From contig JAJTWZ010000003.1 in assembly GCA_021463145.1 (NCBI GenBank), forward strand, positions 35,319 through 99,318: a DNA stretch of 64,000 bases. Reading direction: 5' to 3'. The position numbers were made by a program, and so were the translations under genes. Positions 3,043-63,051 of this stretch are shown piece after piece. Position 1 is the first letter of the stretch. Each line of letters starts with the position of its first letter. Under the pieces are notes generated by a model, which had not been told where the DNA came from, did not search any database, and was given only the letters and a program-made list of their open reading frames with translations. This stretch comes from Blastocatellia bacterium. GTDB lineage: Bacteria > Acidobacteriota > Blastocatellia > UBA7656 > JADIYM01.

Positions 3043-5109
3043 TCAGTACTCGATCAGCTTTAGCGCCTTGTCGTAGACGTCCTCGACCTGAGGCAATACC
3101 GCGCGCTCGAGGATTCGCGAAAAGGGAATCGGAGCGTAAGCGGCTCCGACGCGCCCGATAGGCGCATCCAGATATTCGAAGCACTCCTCGGATATCCGGG
3201 CCGCGATCTCGCCGCCAACGCCGCCGATCGTCGTGTCCTCGTGGACGATGAGGACGCGGTTGGTCTTCTGCACCGATTGAGCGACCGCCGCCATGTCGAA
3301 GGGCACTATCGAGCGAAGATCGATTACCTCGACCTCGACTCCGTGCTCCTCCTTCAGCTGATTGGCGGCGCGAAGCGACCAGTGAACGGTCGTGCCATAG
3401 GTAACGATCGTGAGGTCGGTGCCGGGGCGCCGGATCCTGGCCTTGCCGAACGGGATGCGGTAATCCGGGCCAGGGTCGGAAGCCTTCGCGAAGATCTGGT
3501 TGTAGAGGTACTTCGGCTCGAGAAAAATCGTGATGCCACGGCTGCGGAATGCCTGCCGCAGCAAGCCGGCTGCGTCGTCGGCGAACGCCGGCATCACGAC
3601 TCGCAGCCCCGGCAGCGTCTGGAAGAACGCTTCCAGAGTCTGCGAATGGTAGAGCCCGCCGCCTATGTACCCGCCGCAAGAGAGCCGGATCACCAGGTTT
3701 GGACAGAACTGTCCGTTCGAGCGGTAATAATCGTGCGACGTATCGACGATCTGCTCTGCCGCCGGCCAGTAATAGTCGGCGAACTGGGCGCCCTCGATGC
3801 AGACCCACAAGTCGTCGCGATACCGCGACATGCCGTTCGCCGTGCCGCTGATGAAGTCCTCGGCGATCGGTGCGTTGAACACCCGGCTGTCGCCGAACTC
3901 CTGCACCATTCCCTTCGTGACGTTGAACACGCCGCCCTTCTCGAACGACGCAACGTCCTGGCCCCAGATGTAGGTGTGCGGATTGCGCCGGAATTCGCCG
4001 ATCAGCGTGTGGTTGATCGCTTCGCGGAGGGTGACGATCTCTCCACCGGGCCGCTCGACCAATTCCGACTCCTCGACGTCGGCCTGCTCCGGTACGACGA
4101 ACATCGTTGCCGTCTCGGGATCAGGATCCGGAGCGGCCTCGCCGCGATTGGCAGCGTCGTCGACCAGCGCCGTGTTCTCCGCCTCGATCGCATCGAGCTC
4201 TCCGGCCGAAATGCCGTGTTCGAGCATGTAGTTACGGAGACGAGGGAACGGGTCCATCGTCTCGCACTCAGCGATTTCTTCGGGTGTGCGGTACAACTCG
4301 TGCCGATCCGAGTTCGAGTGCGCGTAAATCCGCCGGCAGAGCGCGTGAACGAGCACGGGGCCCGCGCCGGAATGAACGTAGGCGAGTGCCTCCTGCATTG
4401 CACGGTGCGAGTCGAACGGATTCGTGCCGTCACAGTTGACGATCAGCAGGTTTTTCAGCCCGCGATAGTTCTCCGAGACGATGGGATTTGCGGACTGGAC
4501 GCTGACGGGCACCGAGATGCCGTAGCCGTTGTTCTGGACGACGAAGATGACCGGAAGCTTCTCCCTTGTGGCGCCGTTGAGAGCCTCGTAGACGTAGCCT
4601 TCCGACGTCGACGACTCACCCTGGCTCGAAAAGGCAATGCGGTCCTCTCCGTAGGTCTTAGCTGCCCGAGCGATACCCACGGCGTGCAACGTGTGGTTTC
4701 CAGTCGCCGACGAGACGTTCCAGATTCCGATCGGCAGCTTCGCGAAGTGATTCGACATGTGGCGGCCGCCAGATGCTGGGTCGTCCGCCTTGGAGAGTCC
4801 GTTCAAAATGAGTTCGTATGGCGTGATTCCAGCCGCAAGGCAGGTGAGCATGTCGCGGTAGTAGGGAAAGAGCCAATCCCTGCCTTGCCGGAACGCCATG
4901 CCGAGCGCGACCTGAATGCCGTCGTGGCCGGCGTGTGACGCGTGATAGGACCAGCCTTTCGCCTGGCGGAGATACTTTCGGGCGCGGTCGTCGACGAGGC
5001 GAGCCTGGTGAATCAGGCGGTACCACGACTTCTGGGTTTCAATGTCTACTTTGACTCCGGCGTCGTTCAGTGGTTTGAACTGGATACTTGCTACCGTCTC
5101 TGTACTCAT
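3043..5109 (-). CDS. 2-oxoacid (branched-chain/acetoin-type) dehydrogenase E1 component, fused alpha-beta subunits
   Basis: 688 aa. The N-terminal half has a TPP-binding E1-alpha signature (GxxSEG…N). The C-terminal half is E1-beta / transketolase C-like. The AAGAGAAG RBS precedes the ATG. Confidence 0.85.
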   Translation of the reverse strand: MSTETVASIQFKPLNDAGVKVDIETQKSWYRLIHQARLVDDRARKYLRQAKGWSYHASHAGHDGIQVALGMAFRQGRDWLFPYYRDMLTCLAAGITPYELILNGLSKADDPASGGRHMSNHFAKLPIGIWNVSSATGNHTLHAVGIARAAKTYGEDRIAFSSQGESSTSEGYVYEALNGATREKLPVIFVVQNNGYGISVPVSVQSANPIVSENYRGLKNLLIVNCDGTNPFDSHRAMQEALAYVHSGAGPVLVHALCRRIYAHSNSDRHELYRTPEEIAECETMDPFPRLRNYMLEHGISAGELDAIEAENTALVDDAANRGEAAPDPDPETATMFVVPEQADVEESELVERPGGEIVTLREAINHTLIGEFRRNPHTYIWGQDVASFEKGGVFNVTKGMVQEFGDSRVFNAPIAEDFISGTANGMSRYRDDLWVCIEGAQFADYYWPAAEQIVDTSHDYYRSNGQFCPNLVIRLSCGGYIGGGLYHSQTLEAFFQTLPGLRVVMPAFADDAAGLLRQAFRSRGITIFLEPKYLYNQIFAKASDPGPDYRIPFGKARIRRPGTDLTIVTYGTTVHWSLRAANQLKEEHGVEVEVIDLRSIVPFDMAAVAQSVQKTNRVLIVHEDTTIGGVGGEIAARISEECFEYLDAPIGRVGAAYAPIPFSRILERAVLPQVEDVYDKALKLIEY

Positions 5110-12051: not shown

Positions 12052-13155
12052 CTACGGACTCGCGATTTCGGAGACCGGCAGGCTGGAAGGGCTCTCGTTC
12101 CCGTACCGATCCACCGCCGTTATCCGGTACGCATAGCGCTGACCGATACGCGCGCGATCGTCTCGAAAAGTCGTCCGGTTCACGGGCTTGTCCGTCAGTT
12201 TCGTCCACAAGGACGCGTCGGCCGGCTCGCCATCGGTCCGGTAAACGAAATACCCAACGACATCGGCTTCAATGTTCGTCGGCCAGAAAAGGCTGACCAC
12301 GCCCCCCGCCGACGCGACAGTCACGTTCGAGGGCGCCAGCGGCGGGAAGGTATCGCGCGGAGTGACCGTCAGCCGATCGCTGTCGCTCGACTCGACCGAG
12401 GCATCGGGAGCTTGCGATACGCTCCGGACCACGTATACGTAGGGCGTCAGGTAATTGAAGCGGCGATCCACGAACCGGGCGCCGGTGATGAGTTGATCGT
12501 TGATTGGCCGCCCAAGCCGCTCCGAGTTCGGCTTTGCCCGGTACACGTTGTACCCGACCACCTGCGCAGGAACGGTGCCATCGACGTTCTCATTCGGTGG
12601 AGTCCAGGTAAGCGCCACTTCGTCTTGTGCCTGTGTGACGGCCAGGCCAGTCGGCGGCCGTGCGATTCCGGGCACCGGTTCGATGGACACGATGTTCGAC
12701 AGCAATTGAGGACGGCCGCGACCGTCGATGTAACGGGCCGCGTACTGGAATCTGGTGTTCGAGAGCAACGACGACTGCTTCGGATCGAGTGGGTCGTCGA
12801 AGCTGATCGAGTCGCCTGCCGAGAGCCGGGATTTCAACTCCTCGTAACCAATGAATCCGATGAGATCGGCAGCCTGTTCGAATTCGGCTGGAAACGCCAC
12901 TGGAGTAGCGTCGCGCGACTGCCGCAGCCGGTATATGTCCGCGCGACGCACCGACGTGGCCACGTCTTCGCGCAGGTCAAGTCTGGGTGCGAGCCACGAA
13001 ACTCGAATCGTGCTTCCAACCTGCAGGGCAATCACCTGGTTCGGACGAACCGGCGACCGCCCGATCGGCGGCTGAGGCGCTCCGACCTTGCCGCAAGCAC
13101 CGGCCGCAAGACAAAGACCGAGGAAAGCGACGATGTGCAGGAAATGGCCGCGCAT
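12052..13155 (-). CDS. lipoprotein with fibronectin type III-like domains
   Basis: Lipobox signal (FLGLCLAAGAC|GK). Fn3-like segments (LAVTQAQDEVALTWTPP…VVGYNVYR; VVSLFWPT…VVGYFVYR). Sits directly downstream of hslU. The ORF is open to a GTG at 13173. Confidence 0.6.
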   Translation of the reverse strand: MRGHFLHIVAFLGLCLAAGACGKVGAPQPPIGRSPVRPNQVIALQVGSTIRVSWLAPRLDLREDVATSVRRADIYRLRQSRDATPVAFPAEFEQAADLIGFIGYEELKSRLSAGDSISFDDPLDPKQSSLLSNTRFQYAARYIDGRGRPQLLSNIVSIEPVPGIARPPTGLAVTQAQDEVALTWTPPNENVDGTVPAQVVGYNVYRAKPNSERLGRPINDQLITGARFVDRRFNYLTPYVYVVRSVSQAPDASVESSDSDRLTVTPRDTFPPLAPSNVTVASAGGVVSLFWPTNIEADVVGYFVYRTDGEPADASLWTKLTDKPVNRTTFRDDRARIGQRYAYRITAVDRYGNESPSSLPVSEIASP

Positions 13156-31756: not shown

Positions 31757-32081
31757 CATCGATTGACTTGCGCCAGGAGTGTGCTGAGCCGTCGTGGCTG
31801 GTTCAACCTCCCGCTTCCCTTGGTCCAGGCTTCGAGAGTTTGCAATTTGTGGGACGTAAGTACTGACACTTTTTGTCAGAATGACCGATCACGGCCAAGT
31901 GACGGGTGTCATGGATCTCCGGATTTCAGATCAAATCACTTACATTTGGCTGGGATTTTGCCAGTAGTCATTTCAGCTGGTGATTTTGAGACGAAATGCC
32001 CCGACTCAGGCGCGAAAATTGCCTAGTGTCCGATCCAGAAGGGTTTCACAGCGGCTCGAATCCAAACCTGAGGGATCTTAC

Positions 32082-32801
32082 ATGAGTCTCGGATCGGGCG
32101 ATTTTCGAAAGCGCGGCCGACTGGAGTTGCATATTCCGGTCCGGGTTCGAGTAAAGGAGACGGATGGGCGGGAGTGGGGGGAACTCTCGCACATTCTGGA
32201 CGTGACTCAGATTGGCGCCTCATTCACTCTCGATGGGCACATCGAACAGGGTCGAATCCTTCACCTTAGCCTCCCGCTGCCATGGCGTCTCCGCCAATTC
32301 GATCATTCGGAAGAACTGTATCGAATCTACGCACTCGTCCGATGGGTGCGCCCCCGCGACGAGGGAGGTTACGCGGTTGGAGTCGCTTTCGTCGGCAAGA
32401 ATCCTCCGGCGAGCTGGATCCATGATCCGTCGCGGATTTATGGGACGTCGAAGGTCGATGACGACAACATTCCTCAGCCGCCCTCGCGAGAAGGTGTGGA
32501 TGACAGGCGCGAAGGCCGGATTCAGGCGGCGTTGATGGTCCAGCTCGATCTGCTGGATGACAGGGGGCACTCGGTAGGGTCGGAAGTGACAGTCACCGAG
32601 AACATCAGCCGGCATGGCGCGGCCTGCTATACGTCGATGAAGCCCAATCCTGGCAGTCTGGTTCGTGTGACGTCTCAGCAGACCGCCTTCGCAACGAATG
32701 CTGTGGTGTTGCGATGCCGCACCGGTGAAGACAATATTGCCCGGGTTCACCTGGAGTTTCAGGACGGCGAGTGGCCGCTGGATATTGACGACGCCGAATA
32801 G
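32082..32801 (+). CDS. tandem PilZ-domain protein (putative c-di-GMP receptor)
   Basis: GAGGGA RBS lies 7 nt before the ATG. There are two RxxxR…(D/N)x(S/T)xxG PilZ signatures (RKRGR…DVTQIGA; DRREGR…NISRHGA). The ORF is open from 31980. Confidence 0.6.
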   Translation: MSLGSGDFRKRGRLELHIPVRVRVKETDGREWGELSHILDVTQIGASFTLDGHIEQGRILHLSLPLPWRLRQFDHSEELYRIYALVRWVRPRDEGGYAVGVAFVGKNPPASWIHDPSRIYGTSKVDDDNIPQPPSREGVDDRREGRIQAALMVQLDLLDDRGHSVGSEVTVTENISRHGAACYTSMKPNPGSLVRVTSQQTAFATNAVVLRCRTGEDNIARVHLEFQDGEWPLDIDDAE

Positions 32802-46382: not shown

Positions 46383-48695
46383 ATGAATAGACTTGTGGCG
46401 GTTGCGATCGTTTTGTGTCTGGCGTTCTCGTTTTGCGCCAGGACGCGTGTGGCTCACGCGGACACGAGGGGGAAGACGATGATCTGGGACGTCAAGACGA
46501 CATCCCAGATTGGGCAGCGATCCGTCTACAACACCGACGCCGATGGCACTACGCTTGGCATGCCTTGCGCGTCCGGTGATCTCGATGGCGACGGTGACGA
46601 CGAGGCGATCCTTGCGCCATTCCTTGCTCCTTCTGGGTCGGACAATACAAGGACGCGTGCAGGTGAGTTACAGGTGCATTTCGGTGCATCCGGATCCATC
46701 GGCGGAACGGTCACCGATCAGACTGCGGCGGCCGGGATGCTGACGACGATCTATGGTGCCCGTCCAGGCGACTTCCTTGGTAACGAAGTCGAAGCCGGCG
46801 ACGTTACCGGAGACGGGCTCGAAGATATCCTGGTGGGCGCTCAGAACGCGGACGGCTTTGGCACGGTCGCGGATCGGCCTCTCGCGGGCAAGCTCTACGT
46901 CATCAACGGCCGAACAAGCTGGCCAGCCACCATCGACCTCGCGACCACGCCTATGACAGGGGTGACCGAGATTCTAGGCGCGGCGGCGAGCGAACGTTGC
47001 GGCTTCTGGCCCTCCTTCGGAGACGTCAACGGCGACGATATCAACGACATCATCGTTTCTGCGGACCTTGCCAAGAGTTCGAGCGGCGCCGGCGCCGCTC
47101 GCGGCAAGATCTATATCATTCCCGGGAGCGCATCGCTTCCGGCACAGATCGATCTCGCCAGTTCGACGCAGCTTGCAAACCTCGACATTACAATCATCTA
47201 CGGCATTGACGACTGCGATCATTTCGGTTCGTGTATCGCTTCCGGCGATTTCGACCGTGACGGCTTCGACGATATCGTCTGTTCAGCGGGACTGGCCAGG
47301 TCGGGAGCGTTCCCGACATCCAAGATCGACGAACCCGAAGGCGTTTTCTGTTCTCTCGGACTTGGCGGTGGATCAGGGCCGAACAACGACCGTAACGAGG
47401 CCGGCGAGGTATACATCATCTACGGCCGGGCGAACTGGCCGGCTACGATGGAACTCTCGAGCCCGACCTCCGATGTTGCGATCTATTACGGTCAGAACGC
47501 CGGCGATCATTTCGGGGAAGACGTGCGCGTCGGCGACTTCGACGGGGACGGGATCCTGGAACTGGCGGTGGGAGCGTTGACGGCGTCCGCGCCGTCAGGC
47601 TCGCCCGGAGTTCCGCCTCGCAACGATGCCGGGGTTGGATACATATTCTGGGGGTCGTTCATCACACGCGGAGAGAGAGTCGACACGAAGCTCATCGGAA
47701 CTTCCGACCTCAGGTTGACGAGAATCTATGGCGAAGCCGAGGGCGACATCGGGTCGGACACGATTGCGCTTGCCGATGTGAACGCCGATGGACGAGCCGA
47801 GATGATTTTCGCGAGTCCGACTTACGACCCTTCGGCCCGGCCGCAGGCCGGAGACGTCAAGGTGATTTTCGGAAAGCCTGATCGTCTGCCGACGGTAGTT
47901 GATTTCGCGAATCCGCCGGCCACGGTCGATGTCTACCAGATCATCGCGGCCGATCCTGGCGACATGTTCGCCTATTCTTTTACGGTTGGCGACTTCGACG
48001 CAGATGGATTCACGGATCTGATGCCGAACGGCATGGGCGGCGACGGTCTCGCAAACTGCTGCCGCGACGCCGGGGAGTTGTACATCCTTTCCGGAAAGGA
48101 GTTCAGCATTCGCGCCGGACGCGGTCCGGCCGGAACGCCGTGCCTGACGAAGGTGAACGCGTCGCCAGTGGCGTCGATCTATTACGCGGGGCAGCCCGGG
48201 ATTCAATTGACTCTGCTATGCGAAACTGACCAGGCCGACGGGCTCTACGTTGAGGGCGCGGTGGCGATACTCAACGGCGTCGAAGTGGCCGCCGAATTCG
48301 TTTCGAACAAGCAGCTTCGAGTGAATCTGGACGATGCCCCGTCGGTTCTGAATACACCCGGTCCGGTGACCGCGAGAGTCAAGAATCCCGGGTCCGACGC
48401 ATCTATCGGCGTCTCGGCAATCAACCTCGTGGGCCCGACGATCGATTCGGTCAAGCCCAAGAAAAAGAGCGGTAACCTGAGACTAACCTTGAAGGGTGCG
48501 AATTACCTGCCTGGCGCGACCGTTGAAGTGGCGAACTCGAACGGCGATCCGATCGCGACCATCTCCGTCGTCCGAAAGAGCGCAACTAAACTTCGAGCGA
48601 CGATCGCCGCACAGACTGCCGGGACTGTTCTACTCGTTCGCGCCGCCAATCCGGGACCGGCATATTCCGGCCCGTCAACCGTAGTCGCTCCTTAG
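46383..48695 (+). CDS. secreted FG-GAP (integrin-alpha-like) repeat protein with C-terminal IPT/TIG-like domains
   Basis: Signal peptide. Multiple GDxDGDGxxD FG-GAP repeats (GDVTGDGLEDILVGA; GDFDRDGFDDIV; GDFDGDGILELAVGA; GDFDADGFTDLM). The C-terminus has Ig-like repeats. Confidence 0.7.
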   Translation: MNRLVAVAIVLCLAFSFCARTRVAHADTRGKTMIWDVKTTSQIGQRSVYNTDADGTTLGMPCASGDLDGDGDDEAILAPFLAPSGSDNTRTRAGELQVHFGASGSIGGTVTDQTAAAGMLTTIYGARPGDFLGNEVEAGDVTGDGLEDILVGAQNADGFGTVADRPLAGKLYVINGRTSWPATIDLATTPMTGVTEILGAAASERCGFWPSFGDVNGDDINDIIVSADLAKSSSGAGAARGKIYIIPGSASLPAQIDLASSTQLANLDITIIYGIDDCDHFGSCIASGDFDRDGFDDIVCSAGLARSGAFPTSKIDEPEGVFCSLGLGGGSGPNNDRNEAGEVYIIYGRANWPATMELSSPTSDVAIYYGQNAGDHFGEDVRVGDFDGDGILELAVGALTASAPSGSPGVPPRNDAGVGYIFWGSFITRGERVDTKLIGTSDLRLTRIYGEAEGDIGSDTIALADVNADGRAEMIFASPTYDPSARPQAGDVKVIFGKPDRLPTVVDFANPPATVDVYQIIAADPGDMFAYSFTVGDFDADGFTDLMPNGMGGDGLANCCRDAGELYILSGKEFSIRAGRGPAGTPCLTKVNASPVASIYYAGQPGIQLTLLCETDQADGLYVEGAVAILNGVEVAAEFVSNKQLRVNLDDAPSVLNTPGPVTARVKNPGSDASIGVSAINLVGPTIDSVKPKKKSGNLRLTLKGANYLPGATVEVANSNGDPIATISVVRKSATKLRATIAAQTAGTVLLVRAANPGPAYSGPSTVVAP

Positions 48696-54123: not shown

Positions 54124-55164
54124 TCAGGGTTCGTCGATCGCGGACTTCTCGAGTGACATTGCTCTCTCGAGACGGCGGACTGATTTCTGCAATTCGGGAA
54201 GTCTGTTGAAGACCGCCGAGGACTTGAGCCACGACCGATTGTCGATTGCCGGATAGCCAGAGACGAGTTTCCCGGCACTCACCGAGCTCGGAATTCCGGT
54301 TTGTGCGGTCGCAACGACGCCGTCGCCGATCTCACAGTGCCCGGCAACACCCACCTGGCCGGCAAGCGTGACGCCTCGCCCGACGGTTGTAGAGCCGGCT
54401 AGTCCAACCTGTGCGCAGAGAATCGTGTTCTCTCCGACGACGACGTTGTGCCCGATCTGCACGAGGTTGTCGATCTTGGCGCCAGTGCGTATGCGAGTCT
54501 CGCCAAAAGTAGCCCGATCGATGGTCGAACCTGCGCCGATTTCCACGTCGTCTTCGATTACTACGACCCCGAGCTGTTCGATCTTCTCGTAGTGACCGTC
54601 GGCGTCGCGCGCGAAGCCGAAGCCGTCGCTTCCAACCACCACGCCGGGCTGAAGCACGCATCGGTCTCCGATCTTCGTTCCTTCCCGGACGATGCACCCA
54701 GCCTGAATCACGGTGTCGCGGCCGACCTCCACACAGTCGTAGAGAACTGTCCGCGCGTGGATCTCCGAGCCATCGCCGACCGTAACGTGATCGCCGACGA
54801 CCACGAAGGCTCCCACGTGCGCCTCGTTCGACACGATCGCCGACGGCGCCACCACGGCCGTTTCGTGAATTCCAGTTGGCAGCCGACGGCGCGGATGGAA
54901 CACGCGCGTCGCGCGCGCGAAGTCGGCTCCAGGGCTTTTACTTATGAGGCAGGGAATCGGCGACTCTCCTGCGTGCTCAGGACGGCAGATCGCGGCAGAA
55001 GCCTGTGTTGTCGCAAGTGCCTGCACGTGCTTGGCTTCGGCGGTGTAGGTCAATTGTCCAGTTCGCGCGTCCGCGAGTCCGCCAACACCGGTGATCTCGA
55101 TTTCCGATGCGACGACACCGCCAACCTCGAGGCCCAACACCCTGGCCAGCTCAGTCAATTTCAT
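54124..55164 (-). CDS. lpxD: UDP-3-O-acylglucosamine N-acyltransferase
   Basis: LpxD N-terminal domain followed by hexapeptide repeats and a C-terminal helix. 346 aa. Confidence 0.85.
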
Positions 55165-55293
55165 TCTTGACGTCTCCCCGAAACGAACATATCGTCTGAT
55201 AACGCAATGGGTTGGCGCCGGATCAGAGGTCCGGCGCGAGTCGCCGCAAGACTACAGCCGTTTCCAGGACCTTACAAGGAGCCCCAAGAGCCG

Positions 55294-56175
55294 ATGCCGC
55301 GCGACCTCTGCAAGGACTTCCTTCGTTATCTTCGGGTTGAGAAGGGACTTTCTCCAAATACAATGGAGGCTTATGAGCGTGATCTTCTAAAGCTCATGAG
55401 CTTTGCAGCTTCCTGCGGGCGGGAAATTCTCACTATTGAGCGGGCCGACCTGCTTAACTTCATCCGATCTCTCAGGGAAAGCGGCCTCGAGCCGCAATCC
55501 TGTGCGCGCACAATGGTTACCGTTCGTAACCTCTACAAGTTTCTCATCCTGGACGGTCACATTCACCACGATCCGACGGTGAATATCGAGACACCCCGAA
55601 GCTGGCAGACACTGCCGAAGTTCCTGACTCGGGAGGAGGTCGACCGTTTGCTCGAGGAGCCGGATGTAACAACGGACGTGGGACTTCGTGACCGAGCGAT
55701 GACCGAGCTGTTGTATTCATCAGGGCTCCGAGTCTCCGAGATGGTGTCCCTGAAGCTTTCCGACGTCGATATCGACGCCGGACTCGTCACGTGTCTTGGA
55801 AAGGGATCGAAGGAACGCCGGGTGCCGGTAGGCAGTGCGGCAATCGAGGCAATCCGTCGATACCTCCCGGCCAGGCGTCGAACCGTTGGCGATCGCAACG
55901 TCGAGCAACTCTTCGTGACGTCTCGGGGCACTCCGGTGACACGGCAGATCTATTGGAAGCGTCTCGTCGAATATGGCGAACGCGCCAAGCTTGGCCGTGT
56001 CACTCCACACATGTTGCGCCACACGTTTGCCACGCACCTGCTGGAGCACGGTGCCGATCTACGGTCGGTTCAGATGATGCTCGGTCACAGCGACATTTCG
56101 ACGACGCAGATCTATACGCACGTAACGAACGAACGGCTGCGCGAGGCGTACCGCAAGTTCCATCCGCGAGCCTGA
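55294..56175 (+). CDS. xerD: tyrosine site-specific recombinase XerD
   Basis: Phage-integrase fold with the R…HxxR…Y catalytic motifs (LRHTFATHLLEHGADLRSVQMMLGHSDISTTQIYTHV) and a XerD-like C-terminus ending in …HPRA. AAGGAG RBS. The ORF is open from 55207. Confidence 0.8.
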   Translation: MPRDLCKDFLRYLRVEKGLSPNTMEAYERDLLKLMSFAASCGREILTIERADLLNFIRSLRESGLEPQSCARTMVTVRNLYKFLILDGHIHHDPTVNIETPRSWQTLPKFLTREEVDRLLEEPDVTTDVGLRDRAMTELLYSSGLRVSEMVSLKLSDVDIDAGLVTCLGKGSKERRVPVGSAAIEAIRRYLPARRRTVGDRNVEQLFVTSRGTPVTRQIYWKRLVEYGERAKLGRVTPHMLRHTFATHLLEHGADLRSVQMMLGHSDISTTQIYTHVTNERLREAYRKFHPRA

Positions 56176-56181
56176 CATCAA

Positions 56182-58986
56182 ATGAGCGCACTTGGTGTTT
56201 CCGAACTGGCAACGATCGGGGAAGCGCTCGTCTCCATCGTTCCATTGCCATACATCGTCGCTGACGACGTCAGCTGGCGCGTAGTGCTGGCCAACGGACA
56301 CGCTGAAGCGCTCTACGGCGGTCCACTGGCCGGTGTCGCTCTCGAGTCGCTACTGACGCTTGGCGCCGAACGGGCCGTCGAAGGCACGATCTGGCGGGCG
56401 CAGACATCCGACGAGCCGGTCGAACTGTTTTTCGAGCGGCAAGACGGCAGTTCAGCGGAGGTGCTGGTGCGGGCGCATCGCCTGGATCTGAACGGCTGTA
56501 CGGCGTCTTTAATTGTGCTCGAGGATGTATCGCGTGTCCGCCTGCTGGCGCGAAGCCTTGCGCACGCGGCCACGGAGCGCCGTGACCTGTTCGACGCGTT
56601 GGGACTGGGCGTCGTCGAAATCGACTCGACCGGACGGATTCTGGCTCATAACGGATTCGGGCCGATCGAAACGCTGTTTCCGAGCGGTCTGGCCGGTCGG
56701 AACTTCTTCCGTGACGTCGCAGCCGGATCCGGTCCCGTAGAAGTCCTCCGGCAATACGAGCTCTGGACGTCGGCGATCATCGACGCGCCGTTCCGAGCTC
56801 CATTCGAGTTCGAGCTAGGCCGCCATTTCATTGAAGCGGAGATGCTGGCCGGTTCCTTCACGACCTGCGATGCGATCGTGCGCCTTTCGGACGCGACTTT
56901 GCGGCGACAAGCGGAGGCCGAACTGCGGCAGCAGACGGCGCAGGCCGAAGAAGCTGCTCGCCGGTCGCGACTCGTCTACCAGACTACGAGCCTGCTCCAT
57001 CAGACGCTGGACCTCGACACCGTGCTCGCCACTGCCGTCGAGGAAACTGGCAGGTTGCTCGGGGCGTGTTGTTGCCAGATAGCGTTCGTCGACTCGCTGG
57101 GTGACGTGCGAATCGCGCACGAGTACCTTCGTTCTCCTCGTGAAGTCACGCAGGGACTGGTTGCGGCGTTCGACCTTTTGCCCGCCACGGCAGAGGCAGT
57201 CCGAACGTTGCTGCCCGTCGTCGTCGAGCTCTCGAACGCAGCGGCCTTCCAGTCCGACTCGGGGATGCGCGGGCGCTCCGGGGCCGCGTCCGCAATCGTG
57301 GTGCCGATCGCAGTGAGGCGGGAACCGTGTGGCGTGCTTGCCATTCTCCAGTCGGACAAGACGAGGTCGTGGACCGAAGCGGACATCGAGCTTGGCGTCT
57401 CTGTCGCGGCGCAAGTAGGCCTTGCCATTGGTCATTCGGAGATTCATGAACGGTTGCGCCTCCAGGCGGAACGCGACGCGATGGTTGGCCGCTTCGCCGT
57501 CGCGATTCACGCGGCGCCGTCGCTCGACGAAGCGCTCCGGCGCGCCGCCGAACTGCTGTTGACTCAAACCGAGTGCGACGGGGTGTCCGTTCGTTGCCGC
57601 GATCCGCGGCTCAGTCACGATCGCACCTGGTGTTGGGACGTTGCGCCCGATGGAGCCGTTCGTAGCGTGGATCCAGCCGTGTGCGAGCTCGCAGACAGGA
57701 CGCGCCGCGTGCTTGACGGCGAGGCCGCGGACGACGATCCGGCGATTGCGTTCTCGCCGTTCACGGCGCGGGACGGTGTGCTTGGCCTGCTTGCGATCCG
57801 CTTTCGGCGAAGTATCGGCAGCACTGACGTTCAAGCGCTCGTCGATGCCGTGGCGGTTCACGTCGGAATCGCTGTTGGAGCCTCGACGCTGCTCAGCACG
57901 GTCACCGAAGCTCAGAAGGTCTGGGAGGGCGCATTCGATGCGCTTCCTGATGGCGTCGTCGTCGTCGACCGCTCGATGTCGGTCCTCCGATCGAACCGAG
58001 CGCTGGCGTCCCAGCTCCGCGCGAAGCCGTCGACGATGATTGGACAGCGGCTGCTTGGGTTTTTCTCGGATACGATGGCCGACGCGATCGCGAACGCCGT
58101 CGGGTTGGTCGACTCCGGCCGCAAGCCGGTGCAGGTCGAAGTCGAGGATTCGTCACTCTGCAAGTGGTTCGCTCTTTCGGCGTCTCGGTTGCCGATGTCG
58201 GATCAGGATGCCTTCATTCTTTCTATTCGTGACGTCACACGCGAGCGGACGATCTCGGAGAACCTCGCTCAGTCAACCAGGCTCGCGTCGATCGGGCGGC
58301 TGGCAGCGGGAGTCGCGCACGAGATCAACACGCCGCTTGCGACGATCGCGGGATCGGCGCAGTCATTGGACCGGCAGCTTTCGTCTATCGCCGAGTTGCA
58401 GGAGTCGGAACGCTGGCAGTCGATCCGCGAGCGAATCGACGCGATCGTCGAGCAGGCGTTCCGGTGCAAGAGGATCACGCGAGACCTGCTCGATTACGCC
58501 GCTCCTACGAGACCCAAGTTTCAGGAATGTTCGATTGCCGCCGTCGTCGAAACGTCGATAAATACAATTGCGCGCGAGCGCGGAACGGAGCGGATCACCG
58601 TGACCGAGAAGGGAACCGCCGCGCCAGTATTCACCGATCCCGAGCGAGTCGCACAGGTCCTGATCAACCTCGTGGCGAACGGTCTGGATGCGATCGCCGA
58701 GAAGCCGAAGGGCAGGTTGTCGGTCGAAATCCGGCACCTTCTTCGCGAGGTGCGCTTGGCGGTTCGAGACACGGGCTCCGGAATCTCCCCAGCAGACAGA
58801 GAAAGGATTTTCGAACCGTTCTTCACGACAAAACCGCCCGGTCGCGGCACAGGTCTAGGTCTCTCGATATCGATGAGCATAGTGTCTCGACTTGGTGGAC
58901 GGCTGGAAGCGAAGAGCAGGCCCGGACGGGGTTCGACTTTTACGGTCACGCTTCGCCGGAACCGGCCCGGCGAGGAGTCAAACTGA
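56182..58986 (+). CDS. cytoplasmic multi-sensor histidine kinase (PAS/GAF, HisKA, HATPase_c)
   Basis: 934 aa with several PAS/GAF-like regions, H-box (AAGVAHEINTPLATI) and G-boxes (DTGSGISP; GTGLGLSIS). Confidence 0.8.
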   Translation: MSALGVSELATIGEALVSIVPLPYIVADDVSWRVVLANGHAEALYGGPLAGVALESLLTLGAERAVEGTIWRAQTSDEPVELFFERQDGSSAEVLVRAHRLDLNGCTASLIVLEDVSRVRLLARSLAHAATERRDLFDALGLGVVEIDSTGRILAHNGFGPIETLFPSGLAGRNFFRDVAAGSGPVEVLRQYELWTSAIIDAPFRAPFEFELGRHFIEAEMLAGSFTTCDAIVRLSDATLRRQAEAELRQQTAQAEEAARRSRLVYQTTSLLHQTLDLDTVLATAVEETGRLLGACCCQIAFVDSLGDVRIAHEYLRSPREVTQGLVAAFDLLPATAEAVRTLLPVVVELSNAAAFQSDSGMRGRSGAASAIVVPIAVRREPCGVLAILQSDKTRSWTEADIELGVSVAAQVGLAIGHSEIHERLRLQAERDAMVGRFAVAIHAAPSLDEALRRAAELLLTQTECDGVSVRCRDPRLSHDRTWCWDVAPDGAVRSVDPAVCELADRTRRVLDGEAADDDPAIAFSPFTARDGVLGLLAIRFRRSIGSTDVQALVDAVAVHVGIAVGASTLLSTVTEAQKVWEGAFDALPDGVVVVDRSMSVLRSNRALASQLRAKPSTMIGQRLLGFFSDTMADAIANAVGLVDSGRKPVQVEVEDSSLCKWFALSASRLPMSDQDAFILSIRDVTRERTISENLAQSTRLASIGRLAAGVAHEINTPLATIAGSAQSLDRQLSSIAELQESERWQSIRERIDAIVEQAFRCKRITRDLLDYAAPTRPKFQECSIAAVVETSINTIARERGTERITVTEKGTAAPVFTDPERVAQVLINLVANGLDAIAEKPKGRLSVEIRHLLREVRLAVRDTGSGISPADRERIFEPFFTTKPPGRGTGLGLSISMSIVSRLGGRLEAKSRPGRGSTFTVTLRRNRPGEESN

Positions 58987-60383
58987 TGCCGAAGGCGGCT
59001 GAGCGAATCGAGCTCGGGAGAGTGCTCGTCGTCGAGGACGATGACGCTTACCGACAATTCCTCGTCGCTGAGCTGCGCGATTTCGGATTTCCGGTCGAGG
59101 GTGCCGGCGACGGTCAATCGGCAGTCGCGGCAATCGAATCGACGTCGCCTGCGGTAGTACTGCTCGACATCAGGCTGCCTGGGCTCTCGGGAATCGATGT
59201 GCTCAGGCGGTTGGCCTCGAGCGCGGATGGCGGCCCGCAGGTCGTAATGCTCACGGGCCACGGCACTATCGACACGGCGATCGAGGCTATGAAGCTGGGC
59301 GCTTACGACTATCTGACAAAGCCCTGCGATCTCTCCGAAATGCGGGCCGTGATCGAACGAGCGCTGGAGCGCCGCGAGCTGCAGCGCGAGAATGCCGCGC
59401 TGCGAACGATCCTTCGCCGCAAGGAAGGTGAGGTCGAGCTCATTGGCAGAAGCCGAACGATGAACGATCTCGAGCAGCGCATCGCGAGGATTGCGCCAAC
59501 GGACGCGAACGTGCTTCTGATTGGCGAATCGGGCACCGGAAAGGAGCTCGCGGCGCAACTCGTACACCGGCACAGTCGGCGCGCCGACAAAGCCTTCGTC
59601 GACGTGAATTGCGGCGCCTTGCCAGAGACCCTGTTCGAAAGTGAGTTCTTCGGTCACGAAAAGGGGGCGTTCACCGGCGCAGCCAGCCGAAAATCTGGAT
59701 TGGTCGAAGCCGCGGACGGGGGCACTCTCTTCCTCGACGAGGTTTCGGAAATGCCTCAGGCATCGCAAGTCAAACTACTGCGATTTCTGGAAACTGGCGG
59801 GTTCAGGCGTCTCGGTGGCGTCACGCAGTTAACGGCAAGCGTCCGCGTCGTCGCTGCTTCGAATCGTTCGATCGAGTCCCTCATCGACGGCGGAGGATTT
59901 CGCCGGGATCTCTTTTTTCGCCTGGCCGTCGTCACACTGGAGGTGGCGCCGCTGAGGGAACGCCGCGACGACGTGCCGCTCCTCTCGGAGCACTTCATGC
60001 GGCGCGCGGCATTGGACACGGGCTGTCGTGTGAGTTCGATCGAGCCGGCTGCGCTGGATGCGCTTTCACGGTACGACTGGCCGGGCAACGTGCGCGAACT
60101 GAGGAATGCAGTCGAGAGCGCCGTCATTCTCTGCGACGGTAACATCCTGCGGCTAAGGGATTTGCCGGCACGCGTGCTGACTGGTCCGTCCCGGCCCGGG
60201 CTGTTGCCCGAACCGGGCCCATTCAGCGCAACTGCGATACGGACCCTTGCCGAGGTCGAACGCATGCATATCGAAGCGATGCTGGGATATTTCGACGGGC
60301 ATCGAGAAAGGACTGCACGCGCACTCGGAATCGCCACGAAGACCCTGTATCGAAAGCTTCGGGAATTCGAGGAGTCAAAATGA
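58986..60383 (+). CDS. sigma-54-dependent response regulator (NtrC family: REC, AAA+ sigma-54 activator, Fis-type HTH)
   Basis: GAGGAG RBS. The ATG overlaps the kinase stop. REC domain (VLVVEDD…VLLDIRLPG). Walker A GESGTGKE. GAFTGA sigma-54 contact motif. A C-terminal HTH. Confidence 0.9.
   Translation: MPKAAERIELGRVLVVEDDDAYRQFLVAELRDFGFPVEGAGDGQSAVAAIESTSPAVVLLDIRLPGLSGIDVLRRLASSADGGPQVVMLTGHGTIDTAIEAMKLGAYDYLTKPCDLSEMRAVIERALERRELQRENAALRTILRRKEGEVELIGRSRTMNDLEQRIARIAPTDANVLLIGESGTGKELAAQLVHRHSRRADKAFVDVNCGALPETLFESEFFGHEKGAFTGAASRKSGLVEAADGGTLFLDEVSEMPQASQVKLLRFLETGGFRRLGGVTQLTASVRVVAASNRSIESLIDGGGFRRDLFFRLAVVTLEVAPLRERRDDVPLLSEHFMRRAALDTGCRVSSIEPAALDALSRYDWPGNVRELRNAVESAVILCDGNILRLRDLPARVLTGPSRPGLLPEPGPFSATAIRTLAEVERMHIEAMLGYFDGHRERTARALGIATKTLYRKLREFEESK
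59574..59589. repeat. 16-bp palindrome, 15/16 copy (AGTCGGCGCGCCGACA), inside sigma-54 activator gene
   Basis: Read directly. Frame CGG CGC GCC GAC (RRAD). Confidence 0.9.
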
Positions 60384-60487
60384 CCGAAGGCGGCCAGAAT
60401 TACCGGTCACACCGGGATTCGTAGACGGGAAGGTCATTGGTATCCAGGCGATGTCGCAGGCGGCAAGTCGATGTAGATAGAGAAGTT

Positions 60488-60516
60488 GGGGTGAAATGCC
60501 CCTTATTGCGTTTGTG
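60488..60516 (+). terminator. weak putative terminator after the activator gene
   Basis: GGGG-tgaaatg-CCCC hairpin followed by TTATTGCGTTTGTG. Confidence 0.25.
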
Positions 60517-60531
60517 TGGCACCGGAGTTGC
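60517..60531 (+). promoter_or_regulatory. sigma-54 (-24/-12) type promoter
   Basis: TGGCAC-cggag-TTGC matches the TGGCACG-N4-TTGCW consensus, with GG and GC correctly spaced. It lies in intergenic DNA directly downstream of the sigma-54 activator gene. Confidence 0.5.
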
Positions 60532-60542
60532 CTATAGATTGG

Positions 60543-60625
60543 CGAACTTACAGGGGCGAAAGCCGCAGCCACGCGCACTCCGGGAACTCCTCAGGAATTG
60601 ACGTATGGCTGCGGCATTTTTTTTT
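60543..60625 (+). ncRNA. candidate sigma-54-dependent small RNA (~83 nt) ending in an intrinsic terminator
   Basis: There is no coding potential between the predicted start and the terminator. A 10-bp perfect stem GCCGCAGCCA / TGGCTGCGGC (60562-60615) is followed by T9 (60617-60625). The next gene is convergent on the minus strand. Confidence 0.35.
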
Positions 60626-60709
60626 GTTCGGGCGGACTGGATGTCTCCGCAGAGGACGGACTTACAAGCGCTGGCCGCGGGCTCAGGTTCTGGATTCCAC
60701 TATCGATGC

Positions 60710-62338
60710 TCAGCGTTCGAAGAGAAACACCTCGACGTCCCCGTTGTAGCCAGGCTCCTTGACGCGTGACCGCAGCTTCATGTTTTCGTTGAGCCAGGTT
60801 AGTCCAATTCCTTGAGGATCGGAGATGCTAGCCGTCGCCGTCATTCTGACGAACCATACGCGATCTCGGCCTCGCACAAGCGGCAGCAGCCATCTGTCGG
60901 TGTTGTCGGGAGTAATTCGAACGCCACCGACTTCAGGATAGCCGTCGACGTCCACACCCGGCTTCCGCGTGAAGTACCGCTCGAACGCGATCAACTGGTG
61001 CGGTTCGTTTATCAGGATCGCATCGCCGCTTCGGCTCTGATCCGAGATCAGCGTAGCGACTCGCCGCCACGGCTGTTTGTCCATACCCGGTGAGAAGTAC
61101 CAACTGACCGCCAAAACGCTCGGTATCAGTACGGTGGCAAGCCCTATGACACGAATCCAGTTGCCTGGCGCGGACTCGAGTCCTAGAGCCAGCAGTAGCG
61201 CCATCATCGGTGCAAGGCTCAAGTAAAACCTAAGCTGCTCGGGTCCAACCATCATAATCAGAATAGGCATTGGAAGCAGTGCGGCGAAGAGCACCACGAG
61301 AATGATCGGGCGCCGAATGTCGCTCTTCCACATAAACCAGCTCGCGGCCAGGGCGACGACGTCGAACGCAAGGATGGCCGGAATTCGATACCACGCGACC
61401 ACGAGCCATTTCAGGGACGTTCCCGGCAACACGTCGACGAGCAGGCTCTTTGGAAGGGCAATCAGCCGGTCGCCCGGATTTGAGAATATGGCCTGGTTCA
61501 CGCCTCCAAGGTTGACGAGGAAATCGGCCGCAACTCCGGCCTTTCGCCCATAGCCAAGTCCGAAGATCGCGACAGTCCCGGCCAGGATTGCGGGAACTTG
61601 AAGGACGGCGAGACGAACGACTATTTCGCGACATTCGCGAAAGCAGACGAGCAAGCCGATCGCCTGTCCAGCGATCGGAAGCAGGGAAAGATAGTGAGTG
61701 CCGATGGCCAAATACGCCGCTCCGGTATATCCGGCCGCGAGCAGCCATTTCGTCCTGTTCGTCGACGTTGGCCAGCGTCGGAGGAGTTCCGCAAGGGCCA
61801 CTGTGGCGACAGTGACGAAGAATGTCGCGAGCGCGTACATCCGTACTTCCTGGGAGTACTCCACGTGCAGCGACGCGACGGCCAGAACGCTCGCGGCGAC
61901 CACGCCGGCGCGCTCGTTACAGAGACGCCAGCCGGCCACGAACACAGCGGCTACGGTCAGCGATCCGGGGATCGCCGATACGAGCCTGACGAGCGCATCC
62001 GAGTCCTCGGCAAACGGCAGCCATGCATGAAGAAGGTAGTAGAACGTTGGCGGGTGATAGCCAGAACCGAACCCGTGCTGCAACGAATTTGAATCGGCAA
62101 TGGAGAGGGCCTCGTCGAACCAGAGGCTCTTGCCGCCCAAATCCCAGCAGCGGACGACGGTGGCCGCGATCGTGACTGTCAGGGCGAGCCACGTCCAGAT
62201 CGTGGGTTGCCATCGCGACGGGTCTGCTTTCGTGATGATGGCAGGCGAGACAGGGGTTACCAGCGCGTCGGGGACCTCATCGGTCGCGCTGCCTGCCTTT
62301 CTGCCTGTCCGAGGGGTGCGTGGTGACTTCCTGGCCAT
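60710..62338 (-). CDS. glycosyltransferase family 39 (ArnT/PMT-like) polytopic membrane protein
   Basis: 542 aa with about 12 TM helices and a GT-C fold periplasmic loop. The N-terminal motifs are typical of dolichyl-phosphate-mannose / undecaprenyl-phosphate sugar transferases. Confidence 0.7.
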   Translation of the reverse strand: MARKSPRTPRTGRKAGSATDEVPDALVTPVSPAIITKADPSRWQPTIWTWLALTVTIAATVVRCWDLGGKSLWFDEALSIADSNSLQHGFGSGYHPPTFYYLLHAWLPFAEDSDALVRLVSAIPGSLTVAAVFVAGWRLCNERAGVVAASVLAVASLHVEYSQEVRMYALATFFVTVATVALAELLRRWPTSTNRTKWLLAAGYTGAAYLAIGTHYLSLLPIAGQAIGLLVCFRECREIVVRLAVLQVPAILAGTVAIFGLGYGRKAGVAADFLVNLGGVNQAIFSNPGDRLIALPKSLLVDVLPGTSLKWLVVAWYRIPAILAFDVVALAASWFMWKSDIRRPIILVVLFAALLPMPILIMMVGPEQLRFYLSLAPMMALLLALGLESAPGNWIRVIGLATVLIPSVLAVSWYFSPGMDKQPWRRVATLISDQSRSGDAILINEPHQLIAFERYFTRKPGVDVDGYPEVGGVRITPDNTDRWLLPLVRGRDRVWFVRMTATASISDPQGIGLTWLNENMKLRSRVKEPGYNGDVEVFLFER

Positions 62339-62442: not shown

Positions 62443-63051
62443 ATGTCTCTGATCCCCGACGACACTCAGGTAATGGACGTATTCAGGAAGACGGGTGCAT
62501 TTCGCGAAGGCGTTTTCGAGCATCCAGCTGGCTATTTCACGTCCTTCTACTTTCAGATACCGCTGGCGCTGCGTTACGCGGACAATGCGCGACGTCTTGG
62601 CGTCAGCTTGAGCCGAGTCCTCCGCCGGTCTCGTGAGCTCGTGTCCGCGCTTCCGAGCGTCTCGATCGTTGCCCCGGGTCCAGGCGGAGTGCCCGTTGCG
62701 TTCGAAGTTCGTCAGGCCCTCAGGGCCGAACAGACATTCTGGTCCGAGCGCGAAGGCGGCGAGTACCGATTCCGGCAGTACAACGAGATCAAGCCGGGAC
62801 AGAAATGCGTGATCGTCGACGACATCGCCCGTTCGGGAGATGCCGTCCGTAAGGTCCACGACCTGATCGCGAGCGCGGGTGGCGATGTGCTCGCCGTTGC
62901 CGTATTGGTCCGGTTGTCGACAGCTAAACTCGACCTGCCGGACACGTTGCCGGTCTACAGTCTCGTTGAATTCGAGGCTACGAAGTACGAGAAGCCCGAG
63001 GCCTGCCCGACCTGGCACGAAGGTGTAACGGTCGAGCGTGTTCGCTTCTGA
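62443..63051 (+). CDS. type I phosphoribosyltransferase (orotate PRTase-like)
   Basis: PRPP-binding motif VIVDDIARSGDAV. 202 aa. Confidence 0.65.
   Translation: MSLIPDDTQVMDVFRKTGAFREGVFEHPAGYFTSFYFQIPLALRYADNARRLGVSLSRVLRRSRELVSALPSVSIVAPGPGGVPVAFEVRQALRAEQTFWSEREGGEYRFRQYNEIKPGQKCVIVDDIARSGDAVRKVHDLIASAGGDVLAVAVLVRLSTAKLDLPDTLPVYSLVEFEATKYEKPEACPTWHEGVTVERVRF

Follow-up and report, generated by a model that had tools for sequence, protein, structure and literature searches.

Several small RNA (sRNA) genes are located beside the genes of a histidine kinase and an NtrC-type regulator, with a role of sigma-54 shown or proposed; examples are the NtrBC-NrsZ system of Pseudomonas, GlrKR-GlmY of enterobacteria and Nla19/Pxr of Myxococcus. 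In the cbrA-cbrB-crcZ locus, the sRNA gene lies directly 3' of the regulator gene as a separate sigma-54 unit that CbrB activates via three subsites, and extra copies of the Crc sRNAs (CrcZ/CrcY/CrcX) are present in some genomes (PMC8871633). In Desulfovibrio vulgaris, the mapped target of the sigma-54-dependent regulator DVU0679 is the Dv_sRNA2 gene just downstream, and the motif bound by DVU0679 recurs downstream of its orthologues in related species (PMC3333781). The D. vulgaris sigma-54 regulome includes four non-coding RNAs (PMC4641369). Here we describe a locus of this kind from a Blastocatellia bacterium (Acidobacteriota) that lives in soil and is uncultured, located in a stretch of 64,000 nucleotides (nt) of contig JAJTWZ010000003.1 that we refer to as the window. 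A non-coding unit of ~82 nt lies directly 3' of a gene pair for a sensor kinase and an NtrC-family activator, and we conclude that it is probably the gene of a trans-acting sRNA whose transcription is under the control of the two-component system encoded immediately upstream.

An earlier note on this DNA had likened the unit to sigma-54-dependent sRNAs linked to their cognate bacterial enhancer-binding protein (bEBP). That parallel is supported by the comparative evidence, and the closest analogues are cbrAB-crcZ, DVU0679-sRNA2 and LuxO-Qrr. With cbrA-cbrB-crcZ the locus shares the order of kinase, NtrC-family regulator and sRNA gene, a sigma-54 promoter and three upstream sites. It differs in the RNA, which has no Rfam match, is 82 nt in length and CU-rich, and forms one hairpin, whereas CrcZ (~400 nt) sequesters Hfq/Crc through A-rich motifs. 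The kinases differ as well, CbrA having an SLC5 transporter domain and the kinase here being a soluble GAF/PAS protein, and so do the binding-site motifs. Because CbrAB has been described as confined to Pseudomonadaceae (PMC8871633), this system is an analogue and not an orthologue. DVU0679 and Dv_sRNA2 belong to another phylum, and no sequence relation to them was detected; our covariance model of the RNA found nothing in Desulfobacterota paralogue loci. Binding was shown there by DNA affinity purification and chip hybridization (DAP-chip) and is predicted here. LuxO-Qrr is similar in combining an NtrC-family regulator and sigma-54 with short, terminator-ended, multicopy sRNAs, one qrr gene lying next to luxO. 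The GGTCA-N3-TGACC sites found here share their 5+3+5 palindrome geometry with the LuxO site TTGCA-N3-TGCAA; qrr1 is divergent from luxO, and the Qrr RNAs fold into several stem-loops and carry another conserved seed.

When positions 59500-61500 were searched with cmscan against Rfam 15 at E-values up to 10, three unrelated chance hits and no family match were obtained. The Qrr model (RF00378) and those of CrcZ/CrcY/CrcX, Pxr, NrsZ and GlmY/GlmZ all gave no match in this search; the sizes and folds of the last three groups differ from those of the RNA, which also contains no A-rich (AANAANAA) repeat. The sequence hallmarks of stand-alone sRNA genes that depend on sigma-54 and a bEBP and are linked to their two-component system are present: a correctly spaced, conserved -24/-12 element, an upstream activating sequence 100-200 base pairs (bp) upstream, a full activator, and a conserved non-coding unit that ends in a terminator. 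The module is predicted to work like the known systems while belonging to none of their RNA families or activator orthologue groups.

The evidence comes mainly from relatives. A protein search with the activator returned an orthologue group of 63-98% identity, beyond which identity drops to 50% or less (paralogues). Orthologous DNA was available from the lineage of the window itself (L081-L090) and from nine further loci, listed as L171, L174, L177-L179, L180/181 and L182-L185; the comparative set consists of Blastocatellia loci from metagenome-assembled genomes (MAGs) with activators 63-87% identical. Complete or near-complete MAGs with the locus include GCA_902826415.1, GCA_964641945.1, GCA_041912095.1 and the one whose 4.06-Mb contig encodes MBK6313437.1; the contig of the window is present in samples such as SRR28432764 and SRR34539590. 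As controls we used 160 paralogous activator loci (1.04 Mb, activators at most 48% identical) from scans of genome contigs with the activator protein and of metagenome contigs with an orthologue alignment; both scans returned paralogues only, because the back-translated peptide patterns were generic. The RNA unit follows the activator gene in every orthologous kinase/activator locus for which there is DNA, and where a locus reaches far enough, the kinase gene, the activator gene, the gap and a convergent PMT_2 gene follow in the same order. Searched with a regular expression for its core, the RNA occurs only in orthologous loci. A covariance model built from 13 unit sequences scores 98.9 bits at 60543-60625 and elsewhere in the window recovers only the palindromic reverse strand of that site; in the 160 paralogous loci it finds nothing above noise. 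Linkage of the RNA to this activator family is therefore exclusive among the loci compared. Two relatives, L178 and L179, carry two tandem RNA copies ~260 nt apart, each with three upstream sites, a -24/-12 element and a terminator. In L183, an extra gene of 212 amino acids (aa) without Pfam hits (4117-4755) separates the RNA terminator from the PMT_2 gene.

The promoter consists of TGGCAC (60517-60522), the spacer CGGAG and TTGC (60528-60531). The earlier note had recognized it as a -24/-12 consensus match with the right GG/GC spacing, and its coordinates are exact. Among the 13 distinct units, the GG-N10-GC core, the C after GG and the TTGC are invariant in the alignment, while identity of the promoter segment to the window is 50-82% in orthologous units. 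Loss of the promoter-like sequence in related genomes, an outcome considered in that note, is thus clearly not what is seen. A promoter scan of 59800-61200 found no sigma-70-like promoter.

Three 13-bp sites with spacings of 19 and 13 nt precede all 12 promoters, including the second-copy promoters of L178 and L179. Site 1 has at most one mismatch to GGTCA-N3-TGACC in 11 of the 12 promoter units, at offsets of -168 to -172 (-175 in L185). Site 2 is found at its offset in every unit (12/12) with one to four mismatches. Site 3 is the weakest: only its left half (GGTCA or close) is conserved, at about -139 in most units, and it has one to five mismatches. In the window, site 1 overlaps the activator stop codon (TGA, 60381-60383), but the L180 copy is a perfect palindrome located wholly past the stop, and coding constraint is therefore not the cause of its conservation. 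A test for paired sites, in which one site has at most one mismatch and a partner 18-20 nt away at most two, found nine pairs in nine orthologous loci vs none in the 1.04 Mb of paralogous loci. The inverted repeat CCGGT-cac-ACCGG (60403-60415) had previously been suggested as an enhancer; this was partly right, as the conserved elements are the three enhancer-like sites at 60373-60417 and the repeat itself is only the junction of sites 2 and 3. A weak hairpin thought to separate the activator open reading frame (ORF) from the unit fared less well, as it has no T-run on the + strand, is not conserved, and corresponds to the spacer between sites 1 and 2. Autoregulation was also considered and rejected, since the sites seen upstream of and inside the kinase operon are single and isolated, none of them having a -24/-12 element.

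This architecture bears on a different origin for the RNA, in which the hairpin and T-run serve mainly as the operon terminator, the RNA is processed from the 3' untranslated region, and the sigma-54-like motif is of minor importance. Read-through is possible, as the activator stop codon and the RNA are not separated by a terminator, and CrcZ also arises by read-through from PcbrB (PMC8871633). However, the -24/-12 element and three sites stand at fixed distances in 12 of 12 units, including the tandem copies located after a terminator, and the sequence from stop codon to promoter is otherwise unconserved. Because the second tandem copy lies behind the first terminator, this copy cannot be a by-product of the 3' end of the activator operon. 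We consider processing distinctly improbable as the source of the RNA; read-through may supplement transcription from the promoter but is no substitute for it.

Conservation of the RNA begins 12-13 nt past TTGC in every unit, which is the expected start position for sigma-54 and therefore places +1 at about 60543. From there on, orthologous units are 76-89% identical to the window, whereas the spacer between enhancer and promoter (51-62%) and the DNA after the terminator (48-62%) show about the identity that unrelated sequence gives under this scoring. The 17-nt 5' tail, GAACTTACAGGGGCGAA, and the loop motifs CGCACUCC and CUCCUCAGG (RNA forms CGCACTCC and CTCCTCAGG) are invariant in the 13 distinct units, all of which also keep the T-run (U7-U9). 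The 87-nt RNA stretch folds at -34 kcal/mol (z = -3.15). The 10-bp stem followed by T9 that had been noticed from the window sequence (GCCGCAGCCA, 60562-60571, with TGGCTGCGGC, 60606-60615) was correctly placed but is longer than proposed, extending to 14 bp. Covariation analysis of 60543-60625 across relatives, suggested at the time as a check, supports the hairpin: 97.3% of cells are standard pairs, and in 7 of the 14 pairs both partners have changed in a compensatory manner (18 cells). These values were never reached in 500 column shuffles, sliding the 3' partner by one to three columns leaves 26-47% paired, and RNAalifold recovers the same 14-bp helix on its own. The covariation indicates that the helix is under selection as a hairpin.

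The terminator also speaks against a cis-acting product, in which the promoter would drive an antisense or read-through transcript on the convergent PMT_2 gene, or else a tiny peptide. The PMT_2 gene is convergent with its synteny kept, and a 54-aa ORF has been called at 60605-60769. Yet the transcript would end before PMT_2, at a conserved GC-rich 14-bp stem with U7-U9, and either another gene (L183) or a second RNA copy (L178, L179) intervenes in relatives. In the window, 85 nt separate the end of the terminator from the PMT_2 stop codon. The 54-aa ORF starts in the terminator stem with an ATG that is not conserved, and no conserved ORF lies in the RNA; we regard both forms of this explanation as very improbable. 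The ORF, called by the Logan pipeline in L081-L087, overlaps the convergent PMT_2 gene at the 3' end of the latter; as the ATG of the ORF is not kept in relatives, the call is probably spurious. No conserved ORF or start codon was found within the orthologous RNA units, which agrees with the absence of coding potential described for the window and led us to reject a small-peptide reading.

Two segments of the RNA are predicted to be both unpaired and invariant, namely the 5' tail GAACUUACAGGGGCGAA and the 26-nt loop, which contains CUCC and CUCCUCAGG. Because the letters of the helix vary freely while tail and loop are invariant, we argue for a sequence-specific function of the RNA beyond termination. 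Such a function could consist in binding a protein: the RNA would be real and dependent on sigma-54 and the activator, but would sequester a CsrA/RsmA-like or Hfq/Crc-like protein, as do CrcZ and RsmY/Z. The sequence UACAGGGG in the invariant tail resembles the CsrA core motif from systematic evolution of ligands by exponential enrichment (SELEX), some members have CAGGA at the end of the loop, and the searches of the window identified no mRNA target. The closest genomic analogue, cbrA-cbrB-crcZ, is moreover a sponge of this type (PMC8871633). Against these points, there are merely two GGA-like candidates, the first of which reads GGG and the second GGA in 5 of the 13 units and GGU in the rest. 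CsrB/RsmY-type sponges require several conserved GGA motifs, and these were not found; nor are there A-rich repeats of the CrcZ type. The RNA, with 82 nt and one hairpin, is far smaller than known sponges, and its invariant CU-rich loop has the classic look of an anti-Shine-Dalgarno seed. A CsrA or Hfq sponge was accordingly rejected, the motifs that it needs not being conserved among the 13 units, and protein sequestration in general seems to us unlikely.

Several observations weigh against an activator-controlled, trans-acting sRNA. The exact -24/-12 pattern is matched once in the 64-kb window, by the promoter itself, with 0.15 matches expected and at least one match in 14 of 100 shuffled windows; taken alone, the promoter match is not significant. 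The transcription start is placed by the onset of conservation and the usual sigma-54 spacing, and it is only through co-occurrence that this activator is proposed to bind the palindromes. Covariation alone cannot tell a terminator from a functional RNA, and the case for function would be carried by the invariant unpaired segments. The 26-nt loop is unusually large for an intrinsic terminator, and a simple terminator scan did not call the hairpin because it takes loops of 3-8 nt only. The proposed search for targets complementary to the loop gave no enrichment, with 33 ungapped matches of at least 10 nt in the window vs 44 expected; the corresponding search with the tail, evaluated against shuffled queries, gave 18 vs 18 expected, and ranking all candidate translation-initiation regions in the window by duplex energy yielded uninformative, GC-rich noise. 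Pairing of the loop with the PilZ mRNA described below amounts to only 8 bp, was noticed post hoc in one genome, and would be a lead rather than a result.

With the shuffling result in mind, the unit could be taken for an accidental resemblance to a promoter next to an ordinary terminator, without a dedicated RNA function. We give this hardly any credence. The feature stands above chance because it is conserved in relatives, not because of the promoter match: promoter, sites, tail and loop are kept down to 63% activator identity while the flanks are scrambled, and the unit has been tandemly duplicated and is absent from the 160 paralogous loci.

A regulatory sRNA under the control of its neighbours also requires a competent activator. 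As had been read from the window, the unit lies directly 3' of a kinase/activator gene pair with the next gene convergent, and the Pfam assignments agree. The activator has every part needed for sigma-54 activation: a receiver domain (Response_reg, 1.9e-26) with the receiver Asp in LLDIRLP (residue 61), an AAA+ domain (Sigma54_activat, 1.3e-64) with Walker A GESGTGK (residue 180) and GAFTGA (residue 227), and an HTH_8 domain (2.1e-10). It scores under all NCBIfam equivalog cut-offs (score/cut-off: AtoC 443/714, NtrC 408/559, PEP_resp_reg 377/503, NtrX 370/600, ZraR 356/760, LuxO 351/800, GlrR 302/763) and is therefore an uncharacterised member of the NtrC family. Its start codon overlaps the kinase stop codon (TGATG) and is preceded by a GGAG ribosome-binding site. 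The kinase is presumed to be the cognate partner; a hydropathy scan found no convincing transmembrane segment, and it is therefore probably cytoplasmic. The gene for a XerC/D-type tyrosine recombinase just upstream, which is divergent from lpxD (54124-55164), may form one operon with the kinase and activator genes. In L179 (1-2504), no more than a 243-aa HisKA-HATPase fragment of the kinase is called, with short unannotated ORFs in front of it; this suggests either frameshifts, perhaps introduced by long-read assembly, or a sensor part that has truly decayed.

A second promoter region of the same architecture was found in the window by a motif scan followed by a search for nearby -24/-12 elements. 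At this promoter, site 1 stands 134 nt from the -24 element, closer by one helical turn than at the RNA gene (144 nt), and the window sequence suggests that the second promoter is probably co-regulated by the same activator. Both promoters also carry the 10-mer GAAATGCCCC, which occurs twice in the 64-kb window (60493-60502 and 31993-32002; 0.19 expected), in each case 6-15 nt 5' of the -24 element of a sigma-54-type promoter that also has these enhancer sites. L171 carries the box as well, in two copies separated by one helical turn, and degenerate versions are found in L184 and L178; a bending protein or an additional regulator may bind the box. Elsewhere in the window, two near-consensus sigma-54-like sequences with one mismatch each, TGGCACCGTTCCTGC at 12566-12580 (-) and TGGCACTACGCTTGG at 46544-46558 (+), were found, and no GGTCA-N3-TGACC site was found beside either.

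Downstream of the second promoter is a gene for a tandem PilZ-domain protein, whose ribosome-binding region (32067-32074, CCUGAGGG) shows 8 bp of complementarity, one of them a G-U, to the loop motif CUCCUCAGG of the RNA. Compared with the 13 other CCTGAGG sites in the window it is the best placed to serve as a Shine-Dalgarno sequence, 8 nt 5' of the ATG of a sizeable ORF; three of the others precede merely 62-106-aa ORFs. The stretch UUCACAGCGGCUCGAAUCC in the 5' untranslated region of the PilZ gene resembles the 5' tail of the RNA and does not complement it. Coordinates of all features are collected in Table 1.

Table 1. Features of the RNA locus, the second promoter and their surroundings (window coordinates unless a relative is named)
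Feature	Position	Strand	Remarks
XerC/D-type tyrosine recombinase gene	55207-56175	+	Ends 6 nt 5' of kinase start
Sensor histidine kinase gene, 934 aa	56182-58986	+	GAF, PAS_4, HisKA, HATPase_c (Pfam)
NtrC-family sigma-54 activator (bEBP) gene	58986-60383	+	REC, AAA+, HTH_8 (Pfam)
Enhancer site 1, AGTCAAAATGACC	60373-60385	.	GGTCA-N3-TGACC palindrome, about -171 from RNA start
Enhancer site 2, GGCCAGAATTACC	60392-60404	.	19 nt 3' of site 1, about -152
Enhancer site 3, GGTCACACCGGGA	60405-60417	.	Abuts site 2, about -139
GAAATGCCCC box	60493-60502	+	15 nt 5' of -24 element
Sigma-54 promoter, TGGCAC-N5-TTGC	60517-60531	+	GG 60518-60519, GC 60530-60531
Small non-coding RNA, ~82 nt	about 60543-60625	+	Start predicted to within 2 nt
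RNA 5' tail, GAACUUACAGGGGCGAA	60544-60560	+	17 nt, invariant
RNA stem, 14 bp	60562-60575 with 60602-60615	+	Covariation, RNAalifold
RNA apical loop, CACUCCGGGAACUCCUCAGGAAUUGA, CACUCC...UUGA	60576-60601	+	26 nt, CU-rich
U9 (T9 in DNA)	60617-60625	+	Preceded by one A after stem
PMT_2 glycosyltransferase gene	60710-62338	-	Convergent on RNA unit
Tandem RNA copies in relatives	L178 3922-4440; L179 3922-4471		GCA_902826415.1 and a European Nucleotide Archive (ENA) long contig
Second promoter region, same architecture	31874-32023	+	Motif scan, then nearby -24/-12 search
Site 1-like sequence, TGTCAGAATGACC	31874-31886	+	Degenerate sites 2 and 3 after it
GAAATGCCCC box of second promoter	31993-32002	+	10-mer match
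-24/-12 element, AGGCGC-GAAAA-TTGCC	32008-32023	+	Same GG-to-GC spacing as RNA promoter
Tandem PilZ-domain protein gene, 239 aa	32082-32801	+	Pfam PilZ 4.8e-16, two stretches

From the conserved layout we infer that the unit is transcribed, that this depends on sigma-54 and the activator bound at the upstream sites, and that the RNA acts by pairing with target mRNAs. The soluble GAF/PAS kinase would sense an intracellular cue and phosphorylate the NtrC-family activator, which would then oligomerise on the three GGTCA-N3-TGACC-type sites (60373-60417) and, by means of its GAFTGA loop and ATP hydrolysis, open the sigma-54 holoenzyme complex at 60517-60531. Transcription would begin near 60543 and stop at the 14-bp hairpin and U9. 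The CU-rich loop of the RNA would most likely pair with GGAG-type ribosome-binding sites of target mRNAs and so repress their translation. Sites of this type are used in the genome, as exemplified by GGAG (activator gene), GGAGG (gene at 62443) and GAGGGA (PilZ gene), and because CUCC and CUCCUCAGG of the loop resemble anti-Shine-Dalgarno sequences, translational repression would be the most economical mechanism. The U-tail of the terminator may recruit an RNA chaperone, and the invariant 5' tail may act as another seed or bind a protein. Expression of the tandem-PilZ gene at 32082 is probably driven by this activator too, which would create a feed-forward loop touching cyclic di-GMP (c-di-GMP) signalling.

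A fuller picture, possible but as a whole doubtful, can be drawn from these elements. The RNA would found an sRNA family of the Acidobacteriota (Blastocatellia) and be the main output of a dedicated cytoplasmic GAF/PAS kinase and its NtrC-type regulator, would act by anti-Shine-Dalgarno pairing in a feed-forward arrangement with a co-activated and possibly repressed tandem-PilZ gene, and would link an intracellular signal to c-di-GMP-dependent behaviour, with copy number (one or two tandem genes) tuning the response as in the case of Qrr.

On the comparisons made here, the RNA represents a new family, and the activator a new subfamily, within a known class of regulatory module; the locus is a well-supported further example of that module and introduces no new principle. 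Acidobacteriota are among the most abundant soil bacteria, and their post-transcriptional regulation appears to be unstudied; a full-text literature search found no paper joining Acidobacteria, sigma-54 and sRNA. The locus is unusually complete, offering a sensor, an activator, an enhancer motif, a promoter and an RNA with defined invariant segments, which would allow the module to be reconstituted in a heterologous host and used to trace the targets of the RNA. The covariance model can be used to annotate the RNA in MAGs, and the triple array of GGTCA-N3-TGACC sites (19+13 nt) is a candidate motif for mapping the regulon of this NtrC subfamily. As a distant example of the design in which a two-component system acts through sigma-54 on an adjacent sRNA gene, the locus supports a repeated origin of that design.

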